A model generated the notes under the pieces. The model ran no database searches. It had not been told where the DNA came from and saw nothing but the letters and a program-made list of their open reading frames with translations. From Minisyncoccia bacterium (GTDB lineage: Bacteria; Patescibacteriota; Minisyncoccia; Phycocordibacterales; UBA918), in NCBI GenBank assembly GCA_041750655.1, contig JBGSYZ010000011.1:1794-65793 (forward strand): DNA of 64,000 nucleotides, read 5' to 3'. Positions 26,201 through 38,352 of this stretch are shown here, in pieces (within the stretch, counting starts at the first letter, position 1; the number at the start of each line of letters is the position of its first letter). The position numbers and the translations under genes are program-made.

Positions 26201-27103
26201 TGTAGTAGCTGCTGGTGTAGCAGTAATAATTGGAGGCGTGTTAGTGGCTGGTATAATCTCGTTCGGAACACTGGTCGTTGCAGTAACAGTCTCTTCGCCT
26301 GAGTTTGAAGTTGAAGGAATAACAGATTCTTCTAAGGTCGGTTCCGCAACGAGTGTACTATCACCAGCATCGTCATCAACAAGATCAACACTTTCATCTT
26401 GCGCCACTGGTGTAGTAGTGCTTTCGTTCATAAACGGCAGCCATTTAGTAACAGAGGATAGCACCCAGTTAAGGCCGCCTTTAGCCTTCTTAAATGAGGT
26501 TGTGGTTGGGAACTCTTCGTTATTTACATTGACCTCTGCTTCATACTCAATGTCAGTGTCTGCAGTTTCTACATCAGAATTGGTTTGAGTTTCAACTTCT
26601 TGAGTTGTGGTTGTTTCATCAACTTTATCAATTGTTGGTACTTTAGAGTCATCTATAACTTGTTGACTAGGCAAAGGTGTAAGTGAGCTTGCATCATTTA
26701 TTTTTTCTTCATTTCTATTTTTAATAATCTGCTCGATTGGAACCTCTTCTAAATTAAACCAAGCAGAATTTATCTGATTGAAATCTTGATACAGTGCTAC
26801 TTCACTAACATTTTGTTGGACGAGAGTTTCAGCATTGTTCCAGCCAGGTGCTGAAACTTTACTTGGAAACACATTAATTACTTGGATGTTATAAACGTCC
26901 GCATCATCTGCCGATACTATGTACCAACTAAGTGCTACGCCTGACAACATTAGTAATACAGTAGTAAGCAAATAGGTTTTTTTTCTGAAAATGAAAGATC
27001 TAGACAAGTAACTACTAACAAAAGCCCACGAATATGATTTTATCGCTTTAAATAAGGCTTTATGTAATTTTGCTACTCTTGAATTATGAGGAAAATCTCG
27101 CAT
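8240..27103 (-). CDS. Giant (6287 aa) membrane-anchored multidomain surface protein (adhesin-like): DUF2341+LamG modules, Fn3-like modules, beta-helix super-repeats, Cys-rich C-terminal domain
   Basis: Single uninterrupted 18.9-kb ORF. N-terminal TM at aa ~44-63 (nt 26915..26974). Acidic Ser/Thr/Asp-rich low-complexity stretches at aa 120-320 and 600-700. Three DUF2341-type modules, each with W..R.PITI..., DG.DIRF and Y.YYGN. Two of them (aa 837-995 with 1010-1250, and aa 3226-3330 with 3340-3570) are each followed by a LamG/ConA-like lectin-fold region; the third (aa 5545-5645) is followed by a lectin-fold-like region I did not classify. Two Fn3-like modules ending in TYWWRVR..DP.G...W..WS (aa ~1880-1995 and ~2140-2255). 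Long T/G/S/N-rich stretches typical of parallel beta-helix. Three ~780-aa super-repeats (aa 3596-5530). The aa-to-nt mapping was verified at the DLRFTK codons (nt 10322..10340). Confidence 0.85.
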   Translation of the reverse strand: MRDFPHNSRVAKLHKALFKAIKSYSWAFVSSYLSRSFIFRKKTYLLTTVLLMLSGVALSWYIVSADDADVYNIQVINVFPSKVSAPGWNNAETLVQQNVSEVALYQDFNQINSAWFNLEEVPIEQIIKNRNEEKINDASSLTPLPSQQVIDDSKVPTIDKVDETTTTQEVETQTNSDVETADTDIEYEAEVNVNNEEFPTTTSFKKAKGGLNWVLSSVTKWLPFMNESTTTPVAQDESVDLVDDDAGDSTLVAEPTLEESVIPSTSNSGEETVTATTSVPNEIIPATNTPPIITATPAATTTELPSGTLKAVDNPDSVVVPSVSDPCGEMCAEYTIQLSDFGLPIFNDKFSVHGAQLKVSFAAKLKKTRDAAQLFKLRYSFDNGASWSEAGKITITEEVTNGTNGGYFLFALPEISDSDTLNNLMIELVYDDDPRALDGLFVESAWLELFALESPDVTEDNLTLLTDNGYDDQILKGDTLKLPDGTNIDFTFTDDNTNETLIIKSDKVNYPGLSKSTLYFNVTNISKSEDTFKLQTYFPDGIGQVTNIEEWNSNKPKDVVVPEYKPFVYHCEAGWELTNNPVNSNLEDISKLLAPSSDNTTTIEPAVIPESEQNNFDNGNSEPDTSDQVDISKDTPEETSQPGPVNDVETPTEDLESGPDTNDETLKSVDNEAPLLQSTIQNNLSTATSSSETDDESDEVLATTYVCRNTNIVRECDEIDGDNTACRINDVKVREHKLVQYVDGWEPETVVEGTPEDKRSLFKKAKDWLGFGPDIKPKPDTFEVRAHTPNEYTIAPGETKYFKMEISFPPLTTGEFWIEAIGDDEYGLLDPFWASQWNYRLPITIDNTSGTSNLTEQQVFLELNSSLTNFWANVNDDGSDIRFVQETTTGTEDAWYGTGWSDRIPITIQSSQVDSDQTDFPVYVNLADLGTDFFNTVKSDGGDIRITESDGTTEVPYELVSINTGADTGELHFKGDVSSSVDTTFYLYFGNSDAVGYAETDTYGAQNVWNSEFIAVYHLEEAAAGRGTAGLYQDSTSNEYDADDQLNSSGKTGLLGQGQEIDAQGDASEYMLLPSDIVNGETELTFMYWMNSSEAGNQALINGGANNEYLLYNTGGGTTLQFFPGATISINDLSIAPNWRHVLISRDTVGNEWKAFIDGVEDDNSPSSQSLSTLSIPDNCLVLGLEQDVSCLSSGDTSQHLNATIDEMRFLNVVPGDDWITATYRNQSTTTDFYATSTRESFTNTVFSELDYWLQHFSTSTDEADVWVQVDSLPAGASTTIYMYYGNAAATPASDEFAPFTYSTTTPIYYAVEGLTGGTISVYSYVDNNLVSIDGGTPVPLDSGEPTTFSSYSSTSVISSLGPIAATIDSAGGDILAPISFATTTFAVPTTRNTSSYYIHSPFASSTINTYLGNSGTPSQTFSVATGTTGRSTTDGSGSNGVVITSTQPVLVYHMETGSRDSFVSYPPTTRDIFGIYTGSAYISTVTDNPNPTVYCSGGSSATVSGVTRGEQQSIGTCTSTGQGAGGAARLTNALYPITAIQQADGDGNESSAFWARHEMGTQYYIPTDSAYVAIACSPRFGTTTLEVQQNDGTFVEGATCTPGANTPGKVYFDNGQGGSALAFIAGYKVVSTNGVPFYAIYEDDEEDNDETNMLGGVQGRKYANRFFGYSFGAQEVTIDAEYEQLSFGWYENSTNQTPTSTWPLGEGSFATEGIAITGQGAVNDGDVMRLRMNLQANVATGSASSTAFKLQYVEADTGQCSVATAWSDVGEIGSTTAAFNGYNNGSLIDGTILSSTTLASSTVSETYEEENLSEFLQNTINPGEVGEWDWTITSNNASVNSNYCFRMVRSTGIELVTYTSYPELETAGPPLAPTLISFFNNERTASSSPVVLDFAATDIAGDDIRYQIQVDDDVAFGSPVIDKNSQTSLSQFENVNTPSDKTPFDSGARIRFTGTGSLTASTTYWWRVRGLDPSGSNTWGDWSTAYSFTTDGSVTVSEWHQTTGDQFSTNALTSLSTSTGAVSVSGSSGVMTSTAIDFDDATVGNAWGSVSWGDTETSGTILYQIEYLNGSSWSLIPDSAIANNSVGNGTSPINLLDLDTDTYNQIRLVANFTGTSLSIQDWTVVWGQRVETPTLGDPFDNEKIATTTPALDFTTTDPQGDLLEYEISWGTDYTFVSSTTRNSSTSPGFSSGNPYASGASVTYTIQSGEALTNGQTYWWRVRAKDPYGGDAWSPWSAPDAFTVDTSVSVSTWFQTTREQFQQGTLNGLTASTSGSVTISNEVGEYGKVILDAGTWTEISTQVSYNDPVVVASLRYSMTGDAQRSVRVRNKTADSFEMIVDDPFGTLTGTTTVDYLVMETGVWTLQDGAGGTQVIAGTYANVSDVQGGGGYAASGYGADVTFSPPFSVPPAVIATVSTENDSSWVIAHLNDGNTRNNPPTASAMGLYLGRSNETAVHSPEDIDYIAFEPGHGTNNGAEFDADFGTDSHDEAPPTAEAFTSAFSPSAPEVVIVMQGAEQGGNGAWASLYAATPPTTSNYYPVVDESGDRNHTTEPILTLAFENASGVLLRDSTVGGDLTGEIYSEPILFSDGAGPKFEQLLWNDTEPGTSTITYRLQYLTSTSSWAYIPDAALPNNSIGTTTSPIDLTGLNVSTYNTLRIVGSFSCASGNCPSLQDWTIEWSEGVLMSGTLKQYDRSTNVTSGTVRAAVNGSLLGNTGTVSAGVWSISNVTAFAGDVVTVWVDGAAEANEAVAVFVYDGTGDITGVQMFEQHLSLSSDENGTTTNALLGAYDNSVSGDEDIFFDVDGSNDLSVCAISGCSEASLYIGSGDVYIPDVTSSGNVTTHDFINSGRVELDANTVRVSGSWKNNATFLPETSTIIFTATSTSETVDDADNILDFQNLTFGETSGTATWQTYDPVDVNGALNVTYGTLNRASSTITVAGNLTTGANGFWSGVSTTTFDGSGTSFWSDSNTVKQNVGRVVVDGGAKTITLSSSVYASSTTIGANDTLNAGGANTLFLAGNFTNDNVFSAQTGTIQIVGTSTNAIIKTNGSSLYNVTASTTGSGSISFSESSVSMLGNLTIATGTVTLATATTTIGGSFLNTGGTFAHNNGAVRFTGSGSKSVTLGGTTFLNHLYNVTFAGSGTYTFADINATTSNILRITSGNVVLPSGQLSVARNFITSGSGSFSHNNGEVVLLIEGNDTVTTNGSSFNNLRIRQGSGGSGSWYGSQWTSRVPITIRSSVIDGDLSNFPVYVDLSDLPSAFFSGINTGGGDIRITQSDGITEVPREIVSASTTAETGELYFKASSVSSTTDTIFYIYYGNATATDYAVTATYGAQNVWNNGYVLVSHMNDETTSTIVNSANGSLDGTKLSANNPPQTNLGQIYEAQNFAGTEHIAYGNVGSGAANITISAWINPSNLTGSGDTNTYGYSIFSAHSAGAYTWLTVGGSGGGGSTDEVRFCAFSSSVTCNVANGSNINTGEWHYVSATAIDGGAAAVRVDGNNVLSFTSDGGGTWNSGSTIGDLRPNRDIEFEGILDEIQISNVVRSTAWQDATYRNQGTTTDFYAVGSPQQDSVRTMADINTTVTGNMTVESGQVILPTGVLSIGGSFDNNDGFDANDGTVLFNSTSSSETIAPGSSSFYNLSFNSVSGDWTIIENATSTNNVTLTNAGTLTLNSGLSLYVGGEFTSAVGGASTTWTGSNIILGSGTDYVINTKTAPSDVYATLTVTGDGDVSLWNSSATIYNMLSTASLYSQDHTGVDGDLYIFGNYVRTSGTEHWSYLTDFDGVSLATTTPRQVDVRIQNGATVIASSSGLSIVGSSTASTTIDAQSGSFTLRTNTASVTAQYFEVTGTNASGFQLTSSSTVNTFNNAYFRIPAASSAVTVDASTIDTTPAKQFFDTDFVTAGGNVNVTLSGSPTSYWWFRDGAGDRYGEAFDNADGNPGSIRWDDSSYSIVVSGTVYADDGNSTLGGPTCDGVTNSVRIVVDGGVYSSSTPCSGVDGSYSFGAVNYVGDPSIIVYLDTNGGTTGSVITKTPTANITNLDIYANRVMTRHEDLAPLTIADMAVYDESDDTDIRFVAATGTTDTLTVRADNELYIFASTTFAPGGPVTLTSGGTGNVYDGTLHLGATSTFTGVGTTTYNVGGSIIVEPAAKLTTASSTFVMTATTTGKTITASSTLAFNTLQFTGVGGGWNLNTNITATSGINVATGTLTGTANVTVTNGSFYGDGLVSFGAGTVAIYRSNTYGGVQSWTVNNLTLGNGTVVGTTTPGGTATNTVSGVLTINAAHFLDANNSAWNLTGSGSVFVENGTFLEDTSTVRYGGVLGNTVRNTQYYNLTVEASGGTPTFTAAATGLPVLNNLRVGGTAPTTFTLDTNDPVGSIGGDVYIASNGTLVGSNSATLTVGGAWDNDGTFTNSGGTVTFNSTDAFTIAAGASSFGVVNISGAGAATVIENATSTGAWTLGTTSNFTLNSGNRLAVGGLFTNGAGGAATTWTGSTLHLFGAGQFTINASTTLDQYENLSAAAGTHIRMWNSSATSYLTASGGSVYSMDHLNVTGELYIFGDYIKSSGTDYWSYATDFDGTTLGSGRAVDVYVENGGSFTYSGGSLQMIGSTTASTTVQVQGGSGTYSADITGGGINAQYYILQDLDNDGLTFSGAPTVTTLSNGEFIIGNTGATAMTVAGSVINANPAKNFINNRFATSTGVTAATNVTTSGSTVSSWRFTNHTGDVDGEDFDADNGNPGYIVWDDSLAVITISGNVYENNTSSVSSVCDDVTTNIVLAVAGVVVPAASSTCSSATGAYSISGVSFSPNDTLTLFINSNGGDQGVTVSIDPISSVGDMDIYEDHVILRHESTDPILIADMAVYDSVNDSDIPFTAVDAGSDTLTLNTNTKLIVWANKEFEPQGNITTGGGISDALDGTVELRDNAILTLANTENHAIGGNLEMGTGSVFTPAQSTVTFTSAGSGRTIATNETGFYNLILNGSGTFTSSDTSLRVANDMTLTAGTLTLPNATTTITGSLSVTGGNFVANGGLIVFDSTTAETVVANNSDFNRLLFNGTGSWSMNDTNATATGAITIQKGAVTLPSGVLSVGGSFRNTGGSVVDNTSLLVISTSTSATLLASSSDLYGVTFTGGGTFTMEDNSLTLLDDLILNSGSLTLASGTLSIGGSLDATGGTFTHASGTILFNSSDAGETINPGNNNFNNISIASASGGWTMLTNATTTGNFLLTNAASYTQTAGTVLAVQGVFSNSVGGAATTWTDSTLKLLSGSDYSINTKSAGGDTYGTLYIYDGMDIRMWDSSAATTTLASTSISSLYSQDHANTPGYLYIYGNYTIATGTEYWSYATDFDGTALGGGSRAVNVFVVDSASSSITQTAGNLNIIGAATASTSIQALGGTNYSFDINAGTFNARYYQLRGLDVNGLTFSGIPTVSSLSNGDFEVTVDGGSAITLASTTLNANPSKLIDNVRFATTTAISAFNVNLDATTTNAWTFRDHVGNLSGEDYDADGIDACGSIRWDDSACLLVEQTHYRWRHDDGGEGVPTSEWFDTDWGARQRVRIVNADNATYATTTIKIPVTYDADMQADFEDLRFTKSDGVTELDYWIERYTASSDATVWVEVFELPAQGNLDIFMYYSNVTATTTSSSSATFVVVDDFESGLSGSYSGDTSLFTVDSSFAFGGTKGLDTTGFESSRATDGIASFDRTVSQGQIIRYMQYIDTGAGSSDESCAMFGVQSPVTSNINYGVCLEQFGIERMSLVENVESTDNYGSVNILASTTLTYATGWYEVEIDWQTDNTIDVYLYNSGGTLVATTSAADSSHSSGGFGFTYWGQNGGWDSFTSRYRTNTKPTVIFGAEQTDGGASWATALDTAANTFVIGDVARVRFAVENSGLGITGQQFQIEYAAKGAAPACEAVSAASYNSVPVQSSCGSSPVCMVSSTYYSDGDNTTDLLLETNGTFTSGKIKEDPSSITASLDIDQNEYTELEYAVSPTVNATSSAYCLRVTNAGTDLDSYLSVAELGVAFDPTITAWSLNGGADITLSPGTTTVITASGTVTDLNGYTDLAGATSTTFRSGVTETCTEDQNNCYRSAAPQCAYSACAGNSCTLSCTFDVYYFAEATDMAPYSGETWRSFIELSDQSGATTSAFAPSVDLLTINAITLASTTNSINYGSLTPSADTGSYNATTTVENIGNGNIDISIDGTDLTDGGASTIPVSEQKFASTTFDYSACAFCTTLATTSSAIEVDLFKPTSTTTPVVADVYWGIQIPFGTAAAPHQGSNTFYAVTD
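10516..16318 (-). repeat. Protein-level tandem super-repeats (about 780 aa each, three copies, the third truncated) inside the giant gene
   Basis: Units begin at aa ~3596, ~4397 and ~5163. Each has a beta-helix-like block ending ...TTWTGS.L.L.....Y.IN, then (I/L)(R)MW(N/D)SSA..., YSQDH/YSMDH, LYI(F/Y)G(N/D)Y, WSY.TDFDG, GNPG(S/Y)I(R/V)WDDS, and in units 1 and 2 also ADMAVYD. Copies are diverged at roughly 40-50% identity, so this is not a DNA-identical repeat. Confidence 0.65.
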
Positions 27104-27229: not shown

Positions 27230-28765
27230 CTACTTCAAAATTTTCTTTACGTCATTAATTTCTTTCCCAATTAAAGTTTCCGAAACCTCCAGAGCGTTGT
27301 TAAGTCCTTCAACTGCTTCTCGTTCTTTCTTAGAAAGTCGTGGTCGTTTGGTTATTAGATTGATTTGATCGTAGATCTCGTCACGAAGGGCTGAGAATAT
27401 TTTTTCCATTTGATCTTGTATCTCACGGGTCTCCTTGCTTAATTTTTCTTCCCGTTTAGCATTTTGTCGCTTTTCATAGATATGATAAGCAAACTGTAAG
27501 ATATTAAGAAGTATCAACAAGAAGATAAAAATATTGCCAGGAGTTAAGAATGACCAGAAAGATTTTTCTTCATCTGTTTGACTTGGTGTAATCCAACCAG
27601 CTGTAATCAAAACCGGAGTTGAAGCTTCATACTTATTACCAGCCTTATCAAAAGCGGTCACTTTAACGGTATACGTACCATCCTCAAGTTCACCCAGCAG
27701 ATAACCTAATGCTGCTTCATCAGGGGTCACTATAACTGGTTCCCCGCCAGCAATCGTCATTTCATAACGCTCAATACCGGAAGTGCTATCTTCTGCTTTA
27801 AAGGTAAGAAGTGGAAAAGCTGTTTTAGCATTACCTGTTTGTACTTTGATATCAAACGGTAATGGGGCTTTCGTATCCACCATTATTTTACGATTCAACA
27901 CCGCCCCCCAACCAACTTGGTTTTTAAATCTAATACTCAAATACTGGACACCATCTTGTAAGTCTTCAGCAGTAAGAAGTAACTCTTCTATTGGCGGGGT
28001 GTACGTTTTTTCTGGAACGTGATCACTGGATGTAGACATTTCTACTGCTACTTCGTCGATATCAAAAGGTAAATCCCAAGCAAAGAGAGCGGTGTTAGTC
28101 GCGTACCAAGTTTCAGGGTCAATAAAAGTTTGTGAACCTACAACGGGAGCACGTGGAGGTTCACCGAAGGCAATAGTAGCGTCAGTCGGTTCGTTGTTAT
28201 TTGGAGTTTCAGTTGGGGTAGGAGTTGGTGTCTCTGGTTGCGGTTGTGGTGTGGTGGCAGCAGTAATAGTGTAGTTAGCAGTTACAGCGGCACCGATAAT
28301 ATCAGTCCCCTTTCCATCCGCTGCTAAAGCTGAGGCTGTATCAAATTTTACTTGAGCCGTACCCTCGGTTACAGCTCTAAAGGTAACCACGGCTAAATTA
28401 GAGCGAGAAGAAAAGGGTGAAGGGCTTCCACCTCCAAATTCAATGGTTCCGGCACTATTGGAAAAAGTTGGTTCAGTGGTCCAGAGTGAAAAAACCGAAC
28501 CGGTTTTTGAGACACTGACCACAGAAAGAATTGCCGGGTTAAAAGAAATTTTGGCCTCTACAGCATTGACACTTGCTCCTTTGGGATCAACCTGAATAGT
28601 CGCCGTAAAAGTTTGCCCTGAACTATAAGAACCAGTGGATGGACTGAAAAGAACGTCGGCCGCCAATACTGACTGCTGGAAACCAAACAGTAACAAACCA
28701 AAAAGAAAAACTTTAAAAACAAGTTTTAATACTATCTGAAAATAAATGTGTCTCTCAAGGTTCAT
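27230..28765 (-). CDS. Membrane-anchored protein with N-terminal cohesin-like domain, Pro/Thr linker, extracellular domain, TM helix and cytoplasmic coiled-coil tail
   Basis: 511 aa. Signal peptide (LFGLLLFGFQQSVLAADV). aa ~35-165 (nt ~28270..28663) reads VLFSPSTGSYSSGQTFTATIQVDPKGASVNAVEAKISFNPAILSVVSVSKTGSVF...AGTIEFGGG...LAVVTFRAVTEGTAQVKFD, which fits the cohesin (type I) beta-sandwich pattern. Linker TPQPQPETPTPTPTETP. TM IFIFLLILLNILQFAY at aa ~400-420. Lys/Glu-rich C-terminal tail. Confidence 0.6.
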   Translation of the reverse strand: MNLERHIYFQIVLKLVFKVFLFGLLLFGFQQSVLAADVLFSPSTGSYSSGQTFTATIQVDPKGASVNAVEAKISFNPAILSVVSVSKTGSVFSLWTTEPTFSNSAGTIEFGGGSPSPFSSRSNLAVVTFRAVTEGTAQVKFDTASALAADGKGTDIIGAAVTANYTITAATTPQPQPETPTPTPTETPNNNEPTDATIAFGEPPRAPVVGSQTFIDPETWYATNTALFAWDLPFDIDEVAVEMSTSSDHVPEKTYTPPIEELLLTAEDLQDGVQYLSIRFKNQVGWGAVLNRKIMVDTKAPLPFDIKVQTGNAKTAFPLLTFKAEDSTSGIERYEMTIAGGEPVIVTPDEAALGYLLGELEDGTYTVKVTAFDKAGNKYEASTPVLITAGWITPSQTDEEKSFWSFLTPGNIFIFLLILLNILQFAYHIYEKRQNAKREEKLSKETREIQDQMEKIFSALRDEIYDQINLITKRPRLSKKEREAVEGLNNALEVSETLIGKEINDVKKILK

Positions 28766-28771: not shown

Positions 28772-29233
28772 CTATTTCTTGGTCGGTTTGGCTTGTTTAA
28801 TTTTAAGTTGAACCTTTGCTTTTTCTTCTGGTGCAAGCATTGGCAAAATTAAAATTAACACTCCATTTTTTATTTTAGCCTCAGCGTGGGTGATATCAAC
28901 ACTTTCAGGCAAAATGATTCTTCTATAAAAGTCCCCCCAAATACATTCTTCAGTGAAGAAAGCCCCGTCCACTTTTTTTCTGGGAAACGCAATATATTCA
29001 GGACGCAATCGCTTACCTTCAATCAACACAATGTCCGCATCACCCTCAATCGAAACATGCACATCTGATAGGTCGGCTCCCGACGCTTGGGCATACACCA
29101 CAATCAGATTATCTGACTGGAATACATCCACGTCGAGTTGCACGATTTTATCGAGAGCTGTTTCTTCCTCACTGGATTGCAGACGTTGATTTGCTCGAAC
29201 ACCCCGCCCCTTGAGTCTCTGTAAAAAGGACAT
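28772..29233 (-). CDS. Hsp20/alpha-crystallin family small heat-shock protein
   Basis: 153 aa. Alpha-crystallin domain features (...FPRKKVDGAFFTEECIWGDFYRRIILPESVDITHAEAKIKNGVLILILP...). Size and motif order are typical of bacterial sHSPs. Only 6 nt upstream of the cohesin-like gene, so probably co-transcribed. Confidence 0.7.
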   Translation of the reverse strand: MSFLQRLKGRGVRANQRLQSSEEETALDKIVQLDVDVFQSDNLIVVYAQASGADLSDVHVSIEGDADIVLIEGKRLRPEYIAFPRKKVDGAFFTEECIWGDFYRRIILPESVDITHAEAKIKNGVLILILPMLAPEEKAKVQLKIKQAKPTKK

Positions 29234-29590: not shown

Positions 29591-29624
29591 CGGGTTAAAA
29601 AGTCCGCCAGGACTTTTTAACCCG
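29591..29624. other. Perfect 15-bp palindromic hairpin overlapping the stop codon of 29617..31455
   Basis: cgggttaaaaagtcc-gcca-ggactttttaacccg; the stop codon TAA (rc of 29617..29619) lies inside the 3' arm. No adjoining U-tract on either strand. Confidence 0.4.
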
Positions 29625-31455
29625 TCCATTGGAATAGAAGAATTGAGAAGTCGGTGAGTGAAGTGTTGCCATCGCGGTTTATGTCAGCCGGTGGGTTTGA
29701 ATCTCCACCATTAGTCCCCCACCAGAAAAGTAAAATCGAGAAGTCTATCAAGTTTACTTTTCCATCACGATTGAGGTCAGCATTAAGCACTGAAGCTGTT
29801 TCACCAACTCCGTAAAAGGTATAGTCAGAAAATCCAGTTGACACGCCTCCTGCCTGAGTGGCTCTGGCTCTAATTTTGTAGGTACCTTTAATAAAACCAT
29901 CAGTAGGAATACTTAACGTCCACTTACCATCATTACCAGAATTGGCAGTAAATGTCTTCTTTGAGGCAGTTGTTTTATCATGTTCGTTTTCGATAGTGAC
30001 GGTAGCGTTTGGTATGGAGTATCCAGAAACCGTCAGAGTCTGTCCGGGGTCAACCGGATTCGGGTTTACCGAAATTGAGGGCATGATATTAATATTGGAA
30101 AGTGTGGAGGTACGACCACCAGTCACTGTGAAGGTAGTGGTGAACGTTGTTGAGCGAACATTATTTCCATCGATAGCATAAATACCAAAGCTATATACGC
30201 CACGAGCAATAGCATCAAGGGTGACCGCAAACTTACCGTCACTGCCGGCTGTGCCTATTTGAGCAGAGGCACCATCAACCATAACGACCACTTTTTTATT
30301 AGGGAAAGCGTATCCATTAATAATCACTTTTGCGTCACCACTTGGATACGCATCATCAGTAGTTTCCAACCCACCACCTCCTTGATTACCTGTATCGCCT
30401 CCTGTTCCGCCGCCGGACCCGCCGCCGGAGCCTCCAGAACCACCGCCGCCGGTATTTCCGCCACTACTCCCAGAACCGGAACCAGAACCGCCGGTACCAG
30501 AACCGCTTCCATCATCGCTACCTTGAGTAGAAGTGCCGTTGTCACCCGGATTACCAGTCGGCGGCGCATCAATTGAAAACGAAATCAAATAATCATCAAT
30601 ATTTTGGTTACCCTCATCATCCTCACAACGAACAAAGTAATTATACGAAGTACTGGTAGCCACCGGTGTTTCAAAGCTATGAATAATTGAGCCAGTCACT
30701 GAAAACACACCGCCCATAGAAGCATAGGGTGTGCCGGAAGCAGTCGAGTAACGACAAACAGCAAACTCGTCAGTATTTAGTGACACAATTACATTTAGGG
30801 TCGTACCAGAAAGCAACCCATTGGGGGCACCGTTAAAACGTAATGGGGGCACTGTTTCAGTTGTGTCCACTGGACCAAGTGTAATTTGATCAACAATAGC
30901 AATCCAACCACGAACACTTATATCATTGGAGCCTCCCTTTTCAATAAAAATCGGATGCGAAGAAGTGGCGGTAGGATTAATTATACTGGCATCGGTGGTC
31001 GTTGAATTTGAAGTATGATTACCAACCAACATTCGTATATAAGAACCGGCTGGTATACCCGATGTACTGTTTAGAGTGACCGTTACATTTCCCGAAGTTC
31101 CAGTTGTGATACTCACTCCATCTGTTGAGGTGCTGGTGGTCGTACCGGTATCTCTTTGTATATAGCCACCACCTGAATCAACAAAAAGTTCAACCTGATT
31201 GATACCAAAGTTAGTAGCCGGGATAGTAAACGTGCCTGGTTCGGGTCTAAATCGCACATAATCACCTGGCTGTAAAGCAGTCGTGGTTTTAAATTGGATG
31301 GTATGTGTCGAGGTAGCCGCCGGTGCTGAAGTACCCAAAGTATCTTTATATTCAACAATATTAGCATCAACACTGTACGGAAAAACAGAAAAAATCATTA
31401 GCAGGGAAAAAGCCAACCATACATACCCAAAAAGACTGCGGACCATTGCGCTCAT
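29617..31455 (-). CDS. Secreted Ig-like-repeat protein with Gly/Ser-rich linker and C-terminal double dockerin repeat
   Basis: 612 aa. Signal peptide (LAFSLLMIFSVFPYSVDA). GS-rich linker (GSGSGTGGSGSGSGSSGGNTGGGGSGGSGGGSGGGTGG; GC-rich DNA at ~30360..30550). C-terminus ADLNRDGKVNLIDFSILLFWWG...ADINRDGNTSLTDFSILLFQWTG is two canonical dockerin Ca-binding segments (nt ~29617..29800). Confidence 0.65.
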   Translation of the reverse strand: MSAMVRSLFGYVWLAFSLLMIFSVFPYSVDANIVEYKDTLGTSAPAATSTHTIQFKTTTALQPGDYVRFRPEPGTFTIPATNFGINQVELFVDSGGGYIQRDTGTTTSTSTDGVSITTGTSGNVTVTLNSTSGIPAGSYIRMLVGNHTSNSTTTDASIINPTATSSHPIFIEKGGSNDISVRGWIAIVDQITLGPVDTTETVPPLRFNGAPNGLLSGTTLNVIVSLNTDEFAVCRYSTASGTPYASMGGVFSVTGSIIHSFETPVATSTSYNYFVRCEDDEGNQNIDDYLISFSIDAPPTGNPGDNGTSTQGSDDGSGSGTGGSGSGSGSSGGNTGGGGSGGSGGGSGGGTGGDTGNQGGGGLETTDDAYPSGDAKVIINGYAFPNKKVVVMVDGASAQIGTAGSDGKFAVTLDAIARGVYSFGIYAIDGNNVRSTTFTTTFTVTGGRTSTLSNINIMPSISVNPNPVDPGQTLTVSGYSIPNATVTIENEHDKTTASKKTFTANSGNDGKWTLSIPTDGFIKGTYKIRARATQAGGVSTGFSDYTFYGVGETASVLNADLNRDGKVNLIDFSILLFWWGTNGGDSNPPADINRDGNTSLTDFSILLFQWTG

Positions 31456-31508: not shown

Positions 31509-32315
31509 CTATTTCACACAACGAAAACCGATGGCGTCGCCAATCATATCTCCAGGGACATCGGCATGAACAGCATACACACCAGCATCATCACCACTTC
31601 CATAAAAACCACCTCTCATAATAGCCCATACTGAATTCTGATTGGTCCAAATGTAGTCATTGCCGTATTGCTCACTGCGAGTGGTAGTACTGGTCACAAT
31701 TGCAATACCTGAGGTATCAGCCGAAATAACATATCCTGTTTCAGGTAAATTTCTATCTTTCAACTTACCAGATACAACTTCATCACTGGTCCACTCCCAT
31801 ACATTACCTACTGTATCAAATACGCCGACAGCGGATTTACATTCCAAATTTTTTCCTGTTTCTGTTACCCCAGCTGTATCTATATTACACAAATCATTGT
31901 CCGGAGTACCAAGTGCTATCATGTGCCACTCTTCAGAGGTTGGCAGTCTCTTATCAGATTTAAGACACAAGGCAGCCGCTTGATCTCTTGTGACTGAGCG
32001 CCACGGCTTGGAACCTACTTTTGAAATTGCTTCACAACTTGAATTTTGAATATTTTCTAAAGTTGTTTTGGCATTATTTGGATTTGCATACAGGCAATTA
32101 GCAGAAGGGGAAGCTTCATACTCGTCAACACAGGTAAAACTAGCAGCGGTGGAAACCTCAATCATCCCCGCTGGACAGGTACCACCTGGGGCACCAATCA
32201 GTTGACCAAGCAACGTTGTGCGAGATCCAGAAAGTGTATCGGCCGCATCAATGCCGAGCGCAGTAATGACCGTAGCTCCAACCAAAACTAGAATTATTTT
32301 AAAAATTGATTTCAT
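31509..32315 (-). CDS. Secreted FGE-sulfatase/SUMF1-type (formylglycine-generating-enzyme fold) domain protein, tandem paralog 1 of 3
   Basis: 268 aa. N-terminal TM/signal. GNVWEWTSD motif, RGGFYGSG, C-terminal GFRCVK: the hallmark motifs of the FGE-sulfatase (C-type-lectin-like) domain. Confidence 0.75.
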   Translation of the reverse strand: MKSIFKIILVLVGATVITALGIDAADTLSGSRTTLLGQLIGAPGGTCPAGMIEVSTAASFTCVDEYEASPSANCLYANPNNAKTTLENIQNSSCEAISKVGSKPWRSVTRDQAAALCLKSDKRLPTSEEWHMIALGTPDNDLCNIDTAGVTETGKNLECKSAVGVFDTVGNVWEWTSDEVVSGKLKDRNLPETGYVISADTSGIAIVTSTTTRSEQYGNDYIWTNQNSVWAIMRGGFYGSGDDAGVYAVHADVPGDMIGDAIGFRCVK

Positions 32316-32324
32316 AAACCATTA

Positions 32325-33146
32325 CTACGTGTCAGCGACACAGCGAAAACCAACCGCCGAACCAGAAAAATTAAGTTCGACATCAGCATGAATACTATAT
32401 ATTCCCGCATCAGAACCACTTCCGTAGTAACCACCACGCATTGTTGCCATTATTCCATCTGGTCGTGACCAGAAATAGTCATCATGGAACATGACTTGTG
32501 CATCTTCTGATGTTTCAGTAGCTACTCCAGCACTGTCAGCATTAAGTACGTATCCAGATACAGGTAGTGGTCGATTATTATATACACCATCAACTACATC
32601 TCCAGAAACCCACTCCCACACATTGCCAATCATATTAATTGCCTGCGCTGCTGATTTACAATCTGAGTTTTTGTCAGCCGGTAGTACTGAATTGCCGTTG
32701 ACTGAACACTTTGATTCATCAGTTCCTAACGAGGCTTTATACCACTCTGTCTGATTAGGTAATCGTTTCCCTGCTTTGGCGCATAGTTCAACCGCCTGAT
32801 GATACGTAACATACGTCCATGGTAGTGCGTCCTCTACACTCTCTGGTAGACAACTAGCTTGTTGAATATTTTCTGCACTTTGTGAAGCATGACCAGGATT
32901 TTTTACAGGACAGTCTCGACCTACTGCTACTTCATACGTATCAATACAATAATCATCAACTCCATTTTCAACAAAAGCCATCCCGACTGGGCAACCACCT
33001 TCAGTCGCTCTATCAGCCAATAGTCCAAGAGCCGACTGAGAACCAGTAAGATACTGAGAGGCATCAATACCAAAACTGGTTAGTACCACAATACCAACCG
33101 TCACCATCAAAAAGCGAGCGCCGTTTTTAAACCACCTCATATACAT
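32325..33146 (-). CDS. Secreted FGE-sulfatase/SUMF1-type domain protein, tandem paralog 2 of 3
   Basis: 273 aa. GNVWEWVSGD, RGGYYGSGSDAG, GFRCVADT. Same architecture as its neighbours. Confidence 0.75.
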   Translation of the reverse strand: MYMRWFKNGARFLMVTVGIVVLTSFGIDASQYLTGSQSALGLLADRATEGGCPVGMAFVENGVDDYCIDTYEVAVGRDCPVKNPGHASQSAENIQQASCLPESVEDALPWTYVTYHQAVELCAKAGKRLPNQTEWYKASLGTDESKCSVNGNSVLPADKNSDCKSAAQAINMIGNVWEWVSGDVVDGVYNNRPLPVSGYVLNADSAGVATETSEDAQVMFHDDYFWSRPDGIMATMRGGYYGSGSDAGIYSIHADVELNFSGSAVGFRCVADT

Positions 33147-33196
33147 TTATTGTAGCACTCAACTAACCAAACCAGCTGTATTTATAAAGAAAAATT

Positions 33197-34000
33197 CTAT
33201 ATATCTTTTACACACCTAAAACCAAGTCCGTTAGTACGCAAATCAAACGGTACCGCTAGATTTTGAGCAAAAATACCAGCATCCTCTTCTCCGTCATAAA
33301 AACCACCTCGAATCATCCCGAACACACCATTTTTATTAATCCATGCATAATCGTTACCAAAATTAGATTGTGGACTAGAATCTGTTTCCACTACCACGCC
33401 ACTATTATCTACAACCTTAACGTAACCGGCTTCAGGTAAGTTTCTATCCTCGTATTTGCCGTCAGTCACAGATTCGTCTACCCATTCCCACACATTACCG
33501 ACTAAGTCATATAGACCAGCTTCTGTCTTACAATTGGTTGAAGCAGTCTTTTGTGGTTGTTTCTGATTTACCACACAAGAATCTTGATTTTGTAGGGTTA
33601 AGCTAAGTTTGTACCATTCTGATCCAGTCGGTATACGCTTCCCCACCCGAGCGCACAATTGCTGGGCTTCAGTTAATGACACAAAGCGCCACGGCACAAC
33701 ACCTGAACGAGATTCTGGTACGCAACTTTTTTCCAAAAGATTTCCAGCCGTATCAGCAGCCGTGTTGGTCTCAGGGTACGGACACGCAGCGGAGACACTA
33801 GCTTCAAAATTATCTACACATAAGCTATTGCCAGACATTTGCATAAGGGTTGCACCTGTTCCACAAATATTTACTTGTTCAGAGACCAATCCTGGTAAAG
33901 AACCTTCTATACCTCGGAGGATATCGCTCGCTTGAATTGCTAAGGTCGAAAGAACCAGTGCTCCCACACCAATGGCGGTTCCCTTAATTACCCTTCGCAT
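33197..34000 (-). CDS. Secreted FGE-sulfatase/SUMF1-type domain protein, tandem paralog 3 of 3
   Basis: 267 aa. GNVWEWVDESV, RGGFYDGEEDAG, GFRCVKDI. Confidence 0.75.
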   Translation of the reverse strand: MRRVIKGTAIGVGALVLSTLAIQASDILRGIEGSLPGLVSEQVNICGTGATLMQMSGNSLCVDNFEASVSAACPYPETNTAADTAGNLLEKSCVPESRSGVVPWRFVSLTEAQQLCARVGKRIPTGSEWYKLSLTLQNQDSCVVNQKQPQKTASTNCKTEAGLYDLVGNVWEWVDESVTDGKYEDRNLPEAGYVKVVDNSGVVVETDSSPQSNFGNDYAWINKNGVFGMIRGGFYDGEEDAGIFAQNLAVPFDLRTNGLGFRCVKDI

Positions 34001-34400
34001 AGGTCACCTGATTTTTATTTTTGTTGTCTCGGACAAAATCCAGAGCGTAGTTAAGGATGATAAGTGTCAGCAGGATAAAAAGAATAATACTTAAGATAAA
34101 GGTGGAGGTGTCGGGAGATTGAGTGGCGAGAGGATTTGAATTCAATGTAATCTCTCGTTCTTTTACTTCTTGTTCACGCACATTTAGTTCTTGCTCTTTT
34201 TTGGTAAGCTCGGCGGTCATTAAGCTAAGCTCGGTTGCTTCCACACCAGCTGAAACCCCGATCACGTTACCTAAATACAATTGGGTATTGTGGGAGAGTT
34301 CTTTAGTTATTGGTAGTACAAAACCGCTATCAAACAATAAAACCAAAGCCACTGCGGCGCTCGCTACACGTAACAAGCTGTGATACAGAGAATGCTGCAT
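33984..34400 (-). CDS. Small membrane protein with coiled-coil segment (hypothetical)
   Basis: 138 aa. TM near the N-terminus (AAVALVLLFDSGFVL), central KKEQELNVREQEVKEREI coiled-coil, C-terminal TM (FILSIILFILLTLIILNYAL). Overlaps the upstream gene by 17 nt. No recognisable family. Confidence 0.4.
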   Translation of the reverse strand: MQHSLYHSLLRVASAAVALVLLFDSGFVLPITKELSHNTQLYLGNVIGVSAGVEATELSLMTAELTKKEQELNVREQEVKEREITLNSNPLATQSPDTSTFILSIILFILLTLIILNYALDFVRDNKNKNQVTYAKGN

Positions 34401-34420: not shown

Positions 34421-35479
34421 TTATGCAAAGAGTATCAGCAATAAGATGAGGAATAGTGCTGTGACAGTGAGTAGTACAATAGACACAAGCATAAGCATAG
34501 ATAGTTGTTTGCTCTTGCGCTGTCGGCGCACAAGCTGTCTACGGGCACCAGAAATTTGTTGTACAGCCCTGCGAACGTACAAACGAACTGCAAAGTAACT
34601 TACTAATAGCAGTACAACTAATATAATCAGCGCCGGACCAATAATTTTCATTGGTAATATCCAAAATGAGACCGTAGCATCAATGGTACGATTGCCGCCG
34701 TCTGCCTCGTATACGAGCGCGAGGACAGCCTGGTATCGCCCAAAACCTGGATTCTCATCAGCCCAACTTTGAGTAAAGTCGCGAATGGTGCCCGGGAAAA
34801 CACCAGCCTCAGTGTCATTAAAGGTAGCGGTATGAACACGACGTCCAAACATATTAAACACCTCTAACGGACCAGTAGGGCGCACCAACACTGTACCGGT
34901 ATTCTGGATACGAACATTAAACTTTACATCAGTACTGCCGTGAATTATCTTTTCTGTTGAAAACTCTCGTATCTGAGCACTCACCGTTGCATCACCAGAA
35001 ATTCTGATACTAACAATACTGGCTACATCATAACCAACACTGGCCCCAATTTCCCTAAATTTTGGTGGTTCAACAGAAACAAAGACGCCACCAAAGTGAC
35101 TACCTGGGGTCGCATTATCTGGTATGTTGATAGTAAATTGTAAATTCTTTTTTCCACCAGCTGGAAGCGTAATCGGTTCAGATGGTAAATCTAGCCAAGT
35201 ACTCAATTCAAAGCCAGTTAATTCTTGACCGGGTTTGGCGAACTCAGGAGCGTTGCCATCACGTACTCCGACAATGTCACGCGCGAAAATATAATATAGT
35301 TGCTCCTTATCACTAAGGTTAGTAATTTCAATCTCTTCATTAATTACTTCTCCAGGATCAGCCGCTGCCTCAATGGTGGCTCGGTTAATACTAATTCCAG
35401 CTGAGCTCTGCGCTAGGGTTACATTTGGTATCAGTAAGACAAAAAAAAGAACCAGTGAAGTTGCTTTAAATAAGTTCAT
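34421..35479 (-). CDS. Cell-surface protein, signal peptide plus C-terminal TM/basic tail (paralog of 1034..1978)
   Basis: 352 aa. Signal MNLFKATSLVLFFVLLIPNVTLAQS. C-terminal PALIILVVLLLVSYFAVRLYVRRAV followed by a second hydrophobic segment. Same design as 1034..1978 (DUF916/CscA-like architecture; inference only). Confidence 0.55.
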   Translation of the reverse strand: MNLFKATSLVLFFVLLIPNVTLAQSSAGISINRATIEAAADPGEVINEEIEITNLSDKEQLYYIFARDIVGVRDGNAPEFAKPGQELTGFELSTWLDLPSEPITLPAGGKKNLQFTINIPDNATPGSHFGGVFVSVEPPKFREIGASVGYDVASIVSIRISGDATVSAQIREFSTEKIIHGSTDVKFNVRIQNTGTVLVRPTGPLEVFNMFGRRVHTATFNDTEAGVFPGTIRDFTQSWADENPGFGRYQAVLALVYEADGGNRTIDATVSFWILPMKIIGPALIILVVLLLVSYFAVRLYVRRAVQQISGARRQLVRRQRKSKQLSMLMLVSIVLLTVTALFLILLLILFA

Positions 35480-37067: not shown

Positions 37068-38306
37068 TTAGCTGGCTTTTACGGTGGGGATATCGCTCCA
37101 GCGTGTGGTTTTATGGCCAGAATTCCAAGCGTTTTTGGTCAGCGCATGCTGTTTATTATTTCCAAAAAACGATACCCCTTCTGAACCAAACTTCTTATTT
37201 ATATTGTCGACTACAGACATAAGTCCACTATCTAATACCGTACCAAACAATGAGCTGGTTGTAGCCGCCGCATCGGTAATATCAAAAATAATAATGCCGG
37301 CTTTTTTGTACGGAATACCGGTGCGGTGTTTGCTTCGCAAACACCGCATTGCTTCAGTTAAAAACACCCGTGTGTCATTGGTTGGCTCACTAAGCAAGAC
37401 ATCTTCATATATACCCTGCATAGCAAAATCACTAAACCGAGATGGTCGTACCAGTACTTTAAACGACCGCGCAACCGCACCCATTTCCCGAAGTTCTTTA
37501 GTAGCGTGCTCAACGTGATGCGCCAGGGCTTTTTCTAAGGAAGATAAATCATCCGTGGCTTCACCGAAGGAACGAGTGCTCATGATGCTGTGTTGGAGAC
37601 CAATTTTGGAATGTAATGGCTCGGCCGGCTTCCCAAGGAGCTCACTTTGTAGTCTGACGCCTACCACCCCGAATACTCTGGCAATCTGGGCAGAATCAGC
37701 CTGCATTAAGTCAGCCGGGGTCGATATACCTGTATCGATACACTTGCGGCTTAAACCGCCTCCTACACCCCACAGCGTCCCTATAGGCACTGACTTTGAT
37801 TCCTTTTGCCACATATCATCACTGAGAATACATACCCCCGGACCCTTCTTAGCGCGGTGATTGGCCACTTTGGCTAAAGTCTTGGTTTTAGCCACGCCGA
37901 TGGAGACTGGTACACCGACTTTTCTTTCAACAGTAGTTTTTATGTGACGGATTGTAGCTTCGCGTACATCCGCCTCCTCCACACTAAAAAATGCTTCATC
38001 TACTGAATATTGCTGCATATTCTCTACTTCTTCTCTCAATACCCGCATTACTCGGGCTGATATATCACGATATAAGGTAAAATTAGAGGAAAATACCACT
38101 ACACCTGCTGCTTCAAACTCCTGCTTAACCTTAAAGTAAGGCACTCCCATGGGAATCCCCATATCTTTGACTTCCTGACTGCGAGCTACCACACAACCGT
38201 CGTTACTCGACAGCACCACTACTGGCTGCTTAGCTAAATCTGGCCGAAAAAGCCGTTCACACGACACAAAAAAATTATTACAATCCAAGAGCCCAACCCA
38301 TTTCAT
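37068..38306 (-). CDS. umuC: Y-family translesion DNA polymerase, UmuC-like (Pol V catalytic subunit type)
   Basis: The ORF track gives 37068..38414. The likely true start is the internal ATG at 38306, giving MKWVGLLDCNNFFVSCERLF... (canonical UmuC/DinB N-terminus). SVDEAF motif present. C-terminal ...TTRWSDIPTVKAS resembles the UmuC tail. Using the internal start removes the 62-nt overlap with the upstream gene. Confidence 0.8.
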   Translation of the reverse strand: MKWVGLLDCNNFFVSCERLFRPDLAKQPVVVLSSNDGCVVARSQEVKDMGIPMGVPYFKVKQEFEAAGVVVFSSNFTLYRDISARVMRVLREEVENMQQYSVDEAFFSVEEADVREATIRHIKTTVERKVGVPVSIGVAKTKTLAKVANHRAKKGPGVCILSDDMWQKESKSVPIGTLWGVGGGLSRKCIDTGISTPADLMQADSAQIARVFGVVGVRLQSELLGKPAEPLHSKIGLQHSIMSTRSFGEATDDLSSLEKALAHHVEHATKELREMGAVARSFKVLVRPSRFSDFAMQGIYEDVLLSEPTNDTRVFLTEAMRCLRSKHRTGIPYKKAGIIIFDITDAAATTSSLFGTVLDSGLMSVVDNINKKFGSEGVSFFGNNKQHALTKNAWNSGHKTTRWSDIPTVKAS

Positions 38307-38352
38307 TAATTTATTATACAAAAAATTGTACTGTTTTATCTCTTTTGAGAGA

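Follow-up and report, generated by a model that had tools for sequence, protein, structure and literature searches.

The window analysed here, a 64-kb stretch of DNA, carries three tandem genes for proteins of the FGE fold. CLec folds are the standard target scaffold of diversity-generating retroelements (DGRs), and CPR bacteria own a DGR clade (PMC8144416), in agreement with the initial annotation, which had called the FGE/CLec fold the usual DGR target scaffold in CPR. The locus raises the question of whether these proteins are DGR targets, a repertoire diversified by gene duplication, enzymes, or parts of a surface structure.

Three tandem genes for FGE-fold proteins

The initial annotation had placed three genes at 31509-34000, and open reading frames were found at exactly these positions on the minus strand (Table 1). 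It had also assigned an N-terminal TM or signal segment to each protein, and hydropathy analysis indeed revealed one hydrophobic segment, located at the N-terminus, in each of paralogs A, B and C. A conserved I-D/Q-A motif fits a signal peptidase I site, and the N-terminal helix is predicted to be either a cleaved Sec signal or a signal-anchor. The presence of an FGE-sulfatase-type domain was confirmed with an HMM check. PF03781 was recognized in all three proteins (52.2, 51.5 and 43.8 bits; E values in the range of 1e-11 to 1e-14), well above the Pfam gathering cutoff of 23.3, and was present in all of the 120 relatives listed. The motifs GNVWEW, RGG[FY]Y and GFRCV were found in every paralog, as were 8 conserved Cys residues, and the proteins were taken to be disulfide-rich.

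The domain had further been described as complete. This description holds for the AF2 model of paralog A (pLDDT 93.3), which folds into one compact domain that begins at residue ~50 and reaches the C-terminus, but the Pfam alignments cover the model only in part (positions 64-255, 86-255 or 174-255 of 255 in the three paralogs). The AF2 model and alignments start at residue 2, and model numbering thus equals full-length numbering minus 1. Foldseek searches with the model gave a probability of 1.00 to FGE, pFGE, EgtB, PvdO, TaqVP, Mtd and PorK, with TM-scores of 0.36-0.52. The DGR variable proteins TaqVP, Mtd and TvpA are among its structural neighbours, and FGE, EgtB, PvdO and PorK are equally near. 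Judging from the sequences compared, the subfamily is compact and restricted to Patescibacteria. Few of the close relatives bear names, and these are Kaiserbacteria/Parcubacteria; a literature search found nothing on formylglycine-type proteins in Kaiserbacteria.

Table 1. Positions of the FGE-fold genes, their VR-equivalent segments and the neighbouring genes in the window
Feature	Position	Strand	Properties
Pam-pilin-like protein, 377 aa	35615..36748	-	NCBIfam NF058581 CPR_Pam_pilin_C
WxLIP/PapD-like two-domain chaperone-like protein	34421..35479	-	signal peptide, C-terminal TM helices; PamC/PamD-like architecture
138-aa protein	33984..34400	-	N- and C-terminal TM helices, central charged segment (hydropathy)
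FGE-fold paralog C, type 1	33197..34000	-	267 aa ORF; PF03781 E 3.2e-11; first FGE gene of the operon
VR-equivalent segment of C	33224..33301	-	NNC fraction 0.08, 2 Asn codons
FGE-fold paralog B, type 2	32325..33146	-	273 aa ORF; PF03781 E 1.5e-13; middle copy
VR-equivalent segment of B	32352..32429	-	NNC fraction 0.12, 1 Asn codon
FGE-fold paralog A, type 3	31509..32315	-	268 aa ORF; PF03781 E 9.1e-14; last copy, adjoins dockerin gene
VR-equivalent segment of A	31530..31607	-	26 codons between RGG and GFRC; NNC fraction 0.23, 0 Asn codons
612-aa protein	29617..31455	-	pilin-like N-terminal domain, Gly/Ser-rich linker, Ig-like domains, C-terminal dockerin
Hsp20	28772..29233	-	PF00011; conserved member of gene order
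511-aa cohesin-domain protein	27230..28765	-	signal peptide; TM helix aa 412-430; Cohesin 1.1e-6
6,287-aa giant surface protein	8240..27103	-	DUF2341; last gene of conserved order

Examination of DGR hallmarks

A Pfam scan of the window ORFs of at least 120 aa detected no reverse transcriptase, and a tblastn search with Brt matched only L078 (6e-39), a natural DGR example found in this analysis, and Brt itself. TR/VR pairs were searched for with a core-based detector, with BPP-1 and L078 as positive controls. Both controls were recovered, whereas the window yielded neither a TR/VR pair nor an A-biased repeat, and nor did L001-L015 (14 related loci with ~20 kb around them). When the criterion was that A/T account for at least 75% of mismatches over the full BLAST HSP, nothing was recovered, not even the real DGR of L078, whose HSP extended into flanking sequence without homology. 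As for codon usage, no Asn/NNC bias was seen in the three VR-equivalent segments (NNC 0.08-0.23, 0-2 Asn codons), in contrast to the true VR of L078 (NNC 0.58, 6 Asn codons), where RGG and GFRC are likewise spaced by 26 codons. The initial annotation had reported no reverse transcriptase, no template-like repeat in the window and no AAC/Asn bias in the variable region, and our results agree on all of these points.

The VR-equivalent segment proved to be type-specific and to be conserved between genomes among orthologs of the same type. The sequence AQNLAVPFDLRTNG of paralog C, for example, is kept in L002_1, L008_1 and L008_3. In a related species, both FGE genes were 100% identical across three independent assemblies. 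Ten differences clustered in FGE1 of L004 corresponded to a scaffolding gap of 10 Ns, and not to variation or a frameshift. The paralogs had been proposed to be a diversification system centred on a C-terminal ligand-binding segment; a segment that is conserved among orthologs and identical in the three assemblies speaks against this proposal.

The paralogs belong to the same fold superfamily as the DGR variable proteins TvpA (2Y3C), TaqVP (5VF4) and Mtd (1YU0), with Foldseek E values of 5e-8 to 5e-5, and resemble them in their exported or surface location. With the variable protein of L078 they also share the C-terminal frame RGG...(26 residues)...GFRC. Unlike DGR targets, however, they are accompanied by no RT, TR or IMH-like repeat and display neither Asn/AAC bias nor hypervariability. 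Every sequence-level expectation of DGR targeting failed, and the assumption that the three proteins are DGR targets is not supported. As a DGR lead they represent a negative outcome, and a CLec/FGE fold and a C-terminal RGG...GFRC frame are by themselves insufficient ground to suspect hypermutation. Codon bias, ortholog conservation and TR detection provide a simple contrast with a true target such as L078.

Relationships among the paralogs

The three copies had been thought to differ mostly in the C-terminal segment. This was not the case. Pairwise identity of A, B and C is 34-42% over the full length, and the last 30 alignment columns rank among the most similar, with A and B 60% identical there. 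Among 123 family members, the entropy of segment 233-268 was 1.16 bits, compared with a protein average of 1.67 bits, and the most variable stretches were the loops 76-105 and 136-165, not the C-terminus.

Ortholog identity (50-75%) exceeded paralog identity (34-45%), and the clades were position-specific. Orthologs of paralog C occupy the first position in L002, L008, L006 and L005, and display 54-72% identity to it, compared with the 34-39% between C and its own paralogs. Paralog B groups with L008_2, L006_2 and L005_3, type 2 being missing from some related genomes, and the orthologs of paralog A are L002_2 (72%), L008_4 (55%) and L005_4 (46%). As the paralogs sort into position-specific ortholog groups, the duplications behind types 1, 2 and 3 are old and predate the divergence of the genomes compared. 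The dN/dS values of the FGE-fold genes were at or below ~0.11 where dS could be computed, values which are indicative only because dS is saturated in most pairs, and they point to purifying selection on the paralogs.

These results bear on two alternative explanations. One is that the proteins are the variable proteins of a DGR working in trans from elsewhere in the genome. The scaffold and the dedicated CPR clade (PMC8144416) would suit this explanation, as would the appearance of TaqVP, Mtd and TvpA among the Foldseek top matches and the VR-like length of the RGG-to-GFRC segment, and our search covered 64 kb of this genome. Taking into account, however, that RT and TR were absent from the window and the surroundings of the related loci in searches that recovered BPP-1 and L078, that the codon composition is far from that of a real VR, and that both FGE genes are invariant in three assemblies, we regard it as extremely improbable. 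The other explanation is a rapidly diversifying adhesin repertoire produced by recent tandem duplication, in which each copy samples new ligand specificities. Copy number does vary from 1 to 4 between related genomes (L002 has two copies), the extra copy L008_3 arose by recombination and matches the adjacent copy with 100% identity over its first ~200 nt, and the dN of the FGE genes is 2-3 times that of their operon neighbours (0.22 vs 0.07-0.09). Against this, the window copies are much closer to orthologs in other genomes than to their own paralogs and therefore did not arise recently, their dN/dS is low, the C-terminal segment, the putative ligand-binding part, is conserved although specific to each type, and variability is highest in the two loops mentioned above. 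We thus consider such a repertoire unlikely, and the diversification by gene duplication suggested in the initial annotation does not fit a tree that places the copies of the window as old orthologous types.

Examination of catalytic features

Catalytic FGE possesses a Cu-binding Cys pair (C336/C341 in the human enzyme) between the RGG and GFRC motifs. None of 123 family sequences has a Cys residue at the corresponding site (positions 236-262), and the segment at this site reads FYGSGDDAGVYAVHADVPGDMIGDAI. The paralogs share the PF03781 domain with FGE (SUMF1) and pFGE (SUMF2, 1Y4J), together with the conserved motifs PW..V....A..C...GKRLPT..EW and GNVWEW. The GNVWEW block aligns with residues N293, G296, A298 and E300 of FGE, which we take to be its structural Ca2+ site; the residues here are D, G, V and E. 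In lacking the Cys336/Cys341 pair the paralogs resemble pFGE, which is catalytically inactive and is their best PDB sequence match. Features that set the family apart from FGE and pFGE are an additional Cys-rich stretch at the N-terminus, the Sec signal or anchor, and the location in a surface operon of a prokaryote, and the TM-scores of FGE and pFGE to the model of paralog A were just 0.36-0.42. A DinB-like iron-binding domain is also absent, as the protein has just one domain of ~220 aa downstream of the signal and linker. With neither the defining residues nor the defining domains present, catalysis of the FGE or EgtB type was rejected.

A broader possibility is that the proteins are SUMF1/EgtB/PvdO-superfamily enzymes that act outside the cell and modify either cell-wall components or the subunits of the fibre post-translationally. 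The chemistry of this superfamily is diverse, the relative P0081 carries the generic NCBI name 'SUMF1/EgtB/PvdO family nonheme iron enzyme', and weak NCBIfam matches to EgtB, SenA and OvoA domains were obtained. In addition, several acidic and polar residues are invariant in the family (D64, E67, N88, D220, Y221 and D243 in the full-length numbering of A) and could form an unrecognised active site. However, the EgtB/SenA/OvoA matches reach only 17-32 bits against cutoffs of 360-420, and NCBIfam enzyme matches overall 13-32 bits against 360-500. The sulfatase-type substrate motif CxPxR (C.[PA].R) was not found in any protein of the cluster, most of which contain zero Cys, and no sulfatase is encoded in the window. 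Together with the family-wide loss of the FGE Cys pair, the lack of a DinB-like domain and an inactive protein as top PDB match, this makes an enzymatic function improbable.

A conserved pilus-like gene cluster

The genes around the paralogs follow a conserved order: Pam-pilin-like protein, WxLIP/PapD-like chaperone, 2-TM protein, one to four FGE-fold proteins, pilin-N-domain/dockerin protein, Hsp20, cohesin protein and giant protein. The order is identical in L002, L005, L006, L008, L010, L011, L015 and a JGI contig. Even in the distant relatives with a single FGE copy (L012-L014), linkage to the chaperone-like, pilin-like and dockerin genes is retained, and 22 entries are common to the match lists of the FGE and chaperone-like proteins (matched by longest contig). 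In the loci compared, the FGE-fold genes are thus always part of a conserved operon, which is called pilus-like on account of the NF058581 match, the WxLIP/PapD-like fold and the description of the Pam operon.

The Pam-pilin-like protein aligns with positions 2-148 of the 148 positions of NF058581 at E 2.4e-7, although its score of 30.9 bits does not reach the cutoff of 55; of 10 orthologs of the protein, 7 match this model. The chaperone-like protein matched PF06030 (WxLIP_PGBD) with 28.4 bits at a cutoff of 27.3. Its AF2 model (pLDDT 85) comprises two beta domains and helices 277-310 and 323-351, and Foldseek retrieved the Enterococcus faecium WxLIP protein 9i25_C (1.1e-12) and CfaA (8e-10), followed by Caf1M, FimC and PapD. 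PDB sequence searches with the pilin-like and chaperone-like proteins gave no meaningful match. The 138-aa protein is found in the same position in L002, L005, L006, L008, L009, L010, L011 and L015; the start of paralog C overlaps its upstream gene by 17 nt, and the two are probably translationally coupled. Downstream, the dockerin gene always directly follows the FGE genes in the loci compared. Its product contains Dockerin_1 (1.4e-7) and Big_6 domains (Pfam), and its N-terminal ~200 aa show homology, at 25% identity and E 2e-4, with the pilin-like protein. Hsp20 is 93-97% identical to the copies in L008 and L002, the cohesin protein is syntenic in related loci, and orthologs of the giant protein (5,708-6,674 aa, with Laminin_G_3) occupy the same position.

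Over the stretch that begins with the chaperone-like gene and ends with the dockerin gene, intergenic gaps measure -17 to 53 nt, and judged by this spacing alone the genes would be co-transcribed. A promoter/terminator scan gave counts near shuffled expectation, and Rfam and tRNA scans of the window detected a tRNA-Ser only.

Possible role of the FGE-fold proteins

Taken together, we consider it fairly probable that the FGE-fold proteins are exported, non-catalytic, old and position-specific paralogs with a binding or scaffold role in a Pam/WxL-like surface-fibre operon. Both this role and the nature of the ligands are suggested by context and gene order alone. Types 1, 2 and 3 would act as extracytoplasmic binding or scaffold modules alongside the fibre, directed to specific fibre components or to cell-wall or host glycans, and each type may recognize a different but conserved partner. 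To our knowledge, all cultivated CPR bacteria are episymbionts that rely on surface structures to find hosts. A lectin-fold operon of this kind would nominate candidates for the anchoring or receptor-binding parts of the fibre.

The Pam pilus, the first CPR-specific pilus and described in 2026, is encoded by an operon of PamA, B, C, D, E, T and R; Pam pilins have been reported mainly in Saccharimonadia and Microgenomatia, and the description of the operon reports no FGE-fold, dockerin, cohesin or giant protein (bioRxiv 10.64898/2026.03.03.709456). As in the Pam operon and the Gram-positive WxL/WxLIP clusters (PMC10599100; PDB 9I25), a Pam-pilin-C-like subunit is encoded here next to a two-domain PapD/WxLIP-like chaperone with a C-terminal TM helix, the system being Sec-exported and devoid of an usher. 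It differs from Pam in that the pilin match lies below the curated cutoff and the relatives are labelled Kaiserbacteria/Parcubacteria. An operon in which Pam-like pilin and chaperone genes stand together with lectin-fold paralogs, a pair of dockerin and cohesin proteins and a protein of 6,000 aa would carry the Pam system into a further CPR class. Rather tentatively, the set of two to four FGE-fold proteins and the 2-TM protein might be undescribed fibre components of Kaiserbacteria-type CPR, forming a membrane-proximal platform or a receptor-binding part, with the fibre base subunit possibly tethered by the dockerin-cohesin pair and not by PamR.

Such a fibre component would parallel the recruitment of the FGE-fold proteins PorK and GldJ as structural parts of the type IX secretion system (T9SS). 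PorK/GldK and GldJ (type IX secretion/gliding; 9MZU) are likewise non-catalytic, paralogous and membrane-tethered FGE-fold proteins with a structural function in a cell-envelope machine. They differ in being lipoproteins of another phylum and envelope type, whereas the paralogs here use a signal/TM helix. No T9SS genes were found in the window, and the GldK NCBIfam match reached 12.5 bits against a cutoff of 350. The similarity is at the superfamily level only, with the model of paralog A matching 9mzu_A in Foldseek at 2.8e-5.

Three FGE-fold genes in tandem

Three tandem genes, A, B and C, occupy the minus strand of the window, and transcription runs from C through B to A. Their products scored 52.2, 51.5 and 43.8 bits, respectively, against PF03781 (FGE-sulfatase; gathering cutoff 23.3) in Pfam. 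Each possesses a single N-terminal hydrophobic segment as export signal and exactly eight cysteines, compared with zero to two in the cluster's remaining proteins of small or medium size. The AF2 model of A (input alignment of 100 sequences; pLDDT 93.3, pTM 0.83) began with an N-terminal helix, joined by a linker of low confidence to a single compact domain that spans residue ~50 through the C-terminus. Foldseek placed the model in the C-type-lectin/FGE superfamily. The matches included TaqVP, Mtd and TvpA, variable proteins of diversity-generating retroelements (DGRs) that share the fold, as well as FGEs, pFGE, EgtB, PvdO, CalU17, ToxD and PorK, a ring protein of the T9SS. Because all matched at similar, modest TM-scores (0.36–0.52), the functional classes are inseparable by fold alone. 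ORFs, PF03781 and AF2/Foldseek thus agreed with the initial annotation on the three tandem genes, their motifs (GNVWEW, RGG, GFRC) and the FGE-type fold. The family is compact, with ~65 clusters at 50% identity (E ≤ 1e-30) among 1.84 billion representatives; clusters at 90% identity number more than 1,500.

Features of the window and of related or contrasting loci
Locus	Feature	Coordinates	Strand	Remarks
Window	A	31509-32315	minus	268 aa, type 3
Window	B	32325-33146	minus	273 aa, type 2
Window	C	33197-34000	minus	267 aa, type 1
Window	Dockerin-like stretch	1-77		77% identical to 29709-29785
Window	Giant ORF	8240-27103		6,287 aa, single ORF; DUF2341, Rha78A-like Ig (Laminin_G_3 in orthologs)
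Window	58-nt repeats in giant gene	11033, 13340, 15725		spacing about 2.3 kb
Window	Cohesin-domain protein	27230-28765
Window	Dockerin protein	29617-31455		pilin-like N-terminal domain
Window	UmuC	37068-38414		IMS/IMS_C/DUF4113; translesion synthesis
Window	Glycosylation block	38353-49134		~11 kb
Window	UmuD-like	50402-50854		Peptidase_S24; translesion synthesis
Window	CAP/YkwD-family protein	51144-52229
Window	Sortase gene	52247-52897		overlaps 3' end of 933-aa protein gene
Window	933-aa surface protein	52869-55670		DUF642/choice-of-anchor C, InlB B-repeat
Window	125-aa ORF	60532-60909		overlaps tRNA-Ser(GGA)
Window	tRNA-Ser(GGA)	60639-60726	minus	sole RNA gene detected
L078	Genuine DGR	9551-12170		Chloroflexia MAG CAWBFQ010000002.1
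L078	VR	10413-10548		3' end of FGE-fold gene
L078	RT	10626-11672
L078	TR	12035-12170		11 AAC
L078	VR-like 3' ends	7181-7283, ~7888-8140		kinase-plus-FGE genes
L078	~97-nt repeat arrays	12330-12663, 8135-8229
L008	L008_3	10001-10816		GCA_964353075.1; third of four FGE-fold copies
L005	ABC transporter	12573-14345		foreign insertion
L011	Insert	~6700-10000		~3.3 kb

Absence of DGR hallmarks

The initial annotation had reported no reverse transcriptase (RT), template repeat (TR) or Asn/AAC bias, and this was confirmed for the window. Across the 64 kb, Pfam detected an RT domain in none of the ORFs 120 aa or longer, and tblastn with Bordetella phage Brt gave zero matches in the window or any close-family locus; the same search detected the DGR RT of L078, an unrelated Chloroflexia locus (6e-39). 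Within the window, no repeat of 40 nt or longer touched A, B or C. A TR/VR detector, which seeks repeat pairs with adenine-specific mismatches in one copy, recovered both positive controls (the BPP-1 and L078 pairs) and found no pair in the window or in L001-L015, the family-bearing loci from related genomes. The L078 variable region (VR) encodes RGG-SWSDEARNLRAANRSRYNPGNRLNNI-GFRC, with the same RGG-to-GFRC spacing of 26 codons as the window genes. In this segment, the NNC codon fraction was 0.58 in the L078 VR versus 0.08–0.23 in A, B and C, and Asn codons numbered 6 versus 0–2; the cognate TR of L078 contains 11 AAC triplets, whereas a TR for A, B and C was not found. L078 also carries two more upstream paralogous kinase-plus-FGE genes with VR-like 3' ends, and ~97-nt repeat arrays.

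The claim that the copies differ mostly in the C-terminal segment proved wrong. Pairwise identity among A, B and C is 34–42% over the entire length, and similarity is among the highest over the last 30 alignment columns (60% for A and B). Among 123 family sequences, mean entropy of the VR-equivalent (residues 233–268, full-length numbering of A) was 1.16 bits versus 1.67 for the whole protein, and 0.57–0.95 bits inside each ortholog type; variability peaked at 76–105, 136–165 and 31–60. The type 1 C-terminal segment reads AQNLAVPFDLRTNG, SQNLAVPFDLRTTG or IQNLAAPFDLRTSG across genomes, and is type-specific and conserved. Independent assemblies were compared as a stand-in for read-level data. 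Both FGE genes were 100% identical, save for a 10-N scaffold gap, in L002, L003 and L004 (related species, three ENA assemblies), the exact sequence of the protein relative P0004 was present on at least 24 contigs, and a Logan contig matched the window without a difference over 2,585 nt. The VR-equivalent segment is conserved, not variable. That a DGR elsewhere in the genome targets A, B and C in trans is highly improbable, as every sequence-level expectation of such targeting (RT and TR in the window and related loci, codons, conservation) failed, leaving a DGR-flavoured interpretation of the genes unsupported.

Age and evolution of the paralogs

When 17 copies from five genomes were placed in a tree, grouping followed operon position and not genome. 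Type 1, including C, is the first copy and adjoins the 138-aa gene; type 2, including B, is the middle copy; type 3, including A, is the last and adjoins the dockerin gene. Identity was 50–75% between orthologs versus 34–45% between paralogs. Copy number among related genomes ranges from 1 to 4. The third copy of L008 is recombinant: over the first ~200 nt it is 100% identical to the second copy (L008_2), the remainder is diverged, and its C-terminal segment is type-1-like, NGSDAGVFAQNLNVDFDLRTNG. The mosaic indicates gene conversion among these tandem paralogs. Between the window and L002, dN of the FGE genes was 0.22 versus 0.07–0.09 for operon neighbours (2–3 times faster), and dN/dS was at most ~0.11, a value applying only where dS is unsaturated. 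The earlier proposal of diversification by duplication therefore holds only in part: the family is dynamic, but it is old, position-specific and under purifying selection, a pattern that resembles subfunctionalisation more than a generator of diversity. Foreign genes split the FGE array, or part it from the dockerin gene, in some genomes. Insertions in L005 and L011 indicate that the array tolerates them.

Absence of known catalytic residues

No Cys was present between RGG and GFRC, the site of the FGE catalytic Cys pair (PDB entries named C336S and C341S mutants), in any of the 123 family sequences. The best PDB sequence match was the inactive paralogue SUMF2/pFGE. NCBIfam models for EgtB, SenA, OvoA, PvdO and GldK scored 12–32 bits, far below cutoffs of 350–500. 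With the Cys pair missing, a DinB-like domain absent from the FGE-fold proteins and no CxPxR motif in any cluster protein, an enzyme of the known FGE/EgtB-type kinds was rejected. The invariant GNVWEW block of the family aligns with GNAWEW of FGE, a block that forms a structural Ca2+ site there; GNVWEW is a candidate for such a site.

A conserved gene order, probably a Pam/WxL-like operon

In every related contig long enough, the gene order is UmuC, a pilin-like protein of ~375 aa (377 aa in the window), a chaperone-like protein of ~355 aa (352 aa), a ~135-aa 2-TM protein (138 aa), one to four FGE-fold proteins, a ~610-aa dockerin protein (612 aa), Hsp20, a ~510-aa cohesin protein and a giant protein of 5,700–6,700 aa, which closes the cluster in all related genomes (orthologs of 5,708–6,674 aa). 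Gaps in the window from the chaperone-like gene through the dockerin gene are −17 to +53 nt, and we infer co-transcription. In L012-L014, distant single-copy loci (37–43% identity), the FGE gene lies between the chaperone-like/pilin-like genes and a dockerin-type gene, and the triplicated gene is the chaperone-like one, not FGE. The FGE and chaperone match lists had 22 longest contigs of identical size in common.

The 377-aa protein gave a full-model, sub-threshold match to NF058581, 'Pam pilus system pilin subunit, C-terminal domain' (NCBIfam; E 2.4e-7, 30.9 bits versus cutoff 55), and 7 of 10 orthologs matched. The 352-aa protein exceeded the Pfam WxLIP_PGBD cutoff. Its predicted fold (pLDDT 85) has two beta-domains and, after them, C-terminal TM helices, with E. 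faecium WxLIP as best structural match (1e-12), followed by the chaperone-usher chaperones CfaA, Caf1M, FimC and PapD. This architecture is that reported in a 2026 preprint for PamC and PamD of the CPR 'Pam' pilus, PapD/FimC-like chaperones that carry a TM helix at the C-terminus and act without an usher (bioRxiv 10.64898/2026.03.03.709456). The components it names are PamA, B, C, D, E, T and R; an FGE, lectin or sulfatase-like one is not mentioned.

The pilin-like protein and the dockerin protein have homologous N-terminal domains (the first ~200 aa of the latter), and the cohesin protein bears a signal peptide plus a TM helix (aa 412–430). That the dockerin and cohesin proteins are conserved neighbours suggests that a cohesin-dockerin pair tethers the fibre base, replacing the PamR anchor of Pam pili. 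At the left end of the window, 77 nt resemble the 3' portion of the 612-aa gene that codes for the dockerin, and therefore a second dockerin-bearing gene probably runs off that end. The giant gene contains internal 58-nt repeats.

The evidence best supports reading A, B and C as non-catalytic lectin-fold modules of a Pam/WxL-like surface-fibre operon. They would be exported and disulfide-stabilised, in a CPR bacterium of Kaiserbacteria/Parcubacteria type (labels taken from the relatives P0081, P0118 and L009). Each paralog type probably binds a distinct conserved partner, which would be either a component of the fibre or a glycan of the cell wall or host. PorK/GldK/GldJ of the T9SS, non-catalytic FGE-fold paralogs serving as envelope-machine parts, are the closest functional precedent, with likeness at the superfamily level only. 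What genomic context points to is a clade-specific FGE-fold subfamily with a conserved, apparently undescribed place in a pilus-like operon.

Surroundings of the cluster

UmuC and UmuD-like genes bracket the cluster region, and in all related genomes examined UmuC directly precedes the pilin-like gene. The glycosylation block encodes GH5/GH39-like, flippase-like (polysaccharide; plus strand), 1,545-aa double-GT4/DUF2206 fusion, polysaccharide deacetylase, GT4 and GT2 proteins. It is probably an acquired island: its GC content is 0.36–0.38 versus 0.42–0.46 in the flanks, and it lies between UmuC and the GH18/UmuD genes, which adjoin in L002, L005 and others. The 125-aa ORF over the tRNA gene is probably spurious. 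L002 and L006 share the upstream trio of sortase, 933-aa surface protein and CAP/YkwD-family protein.
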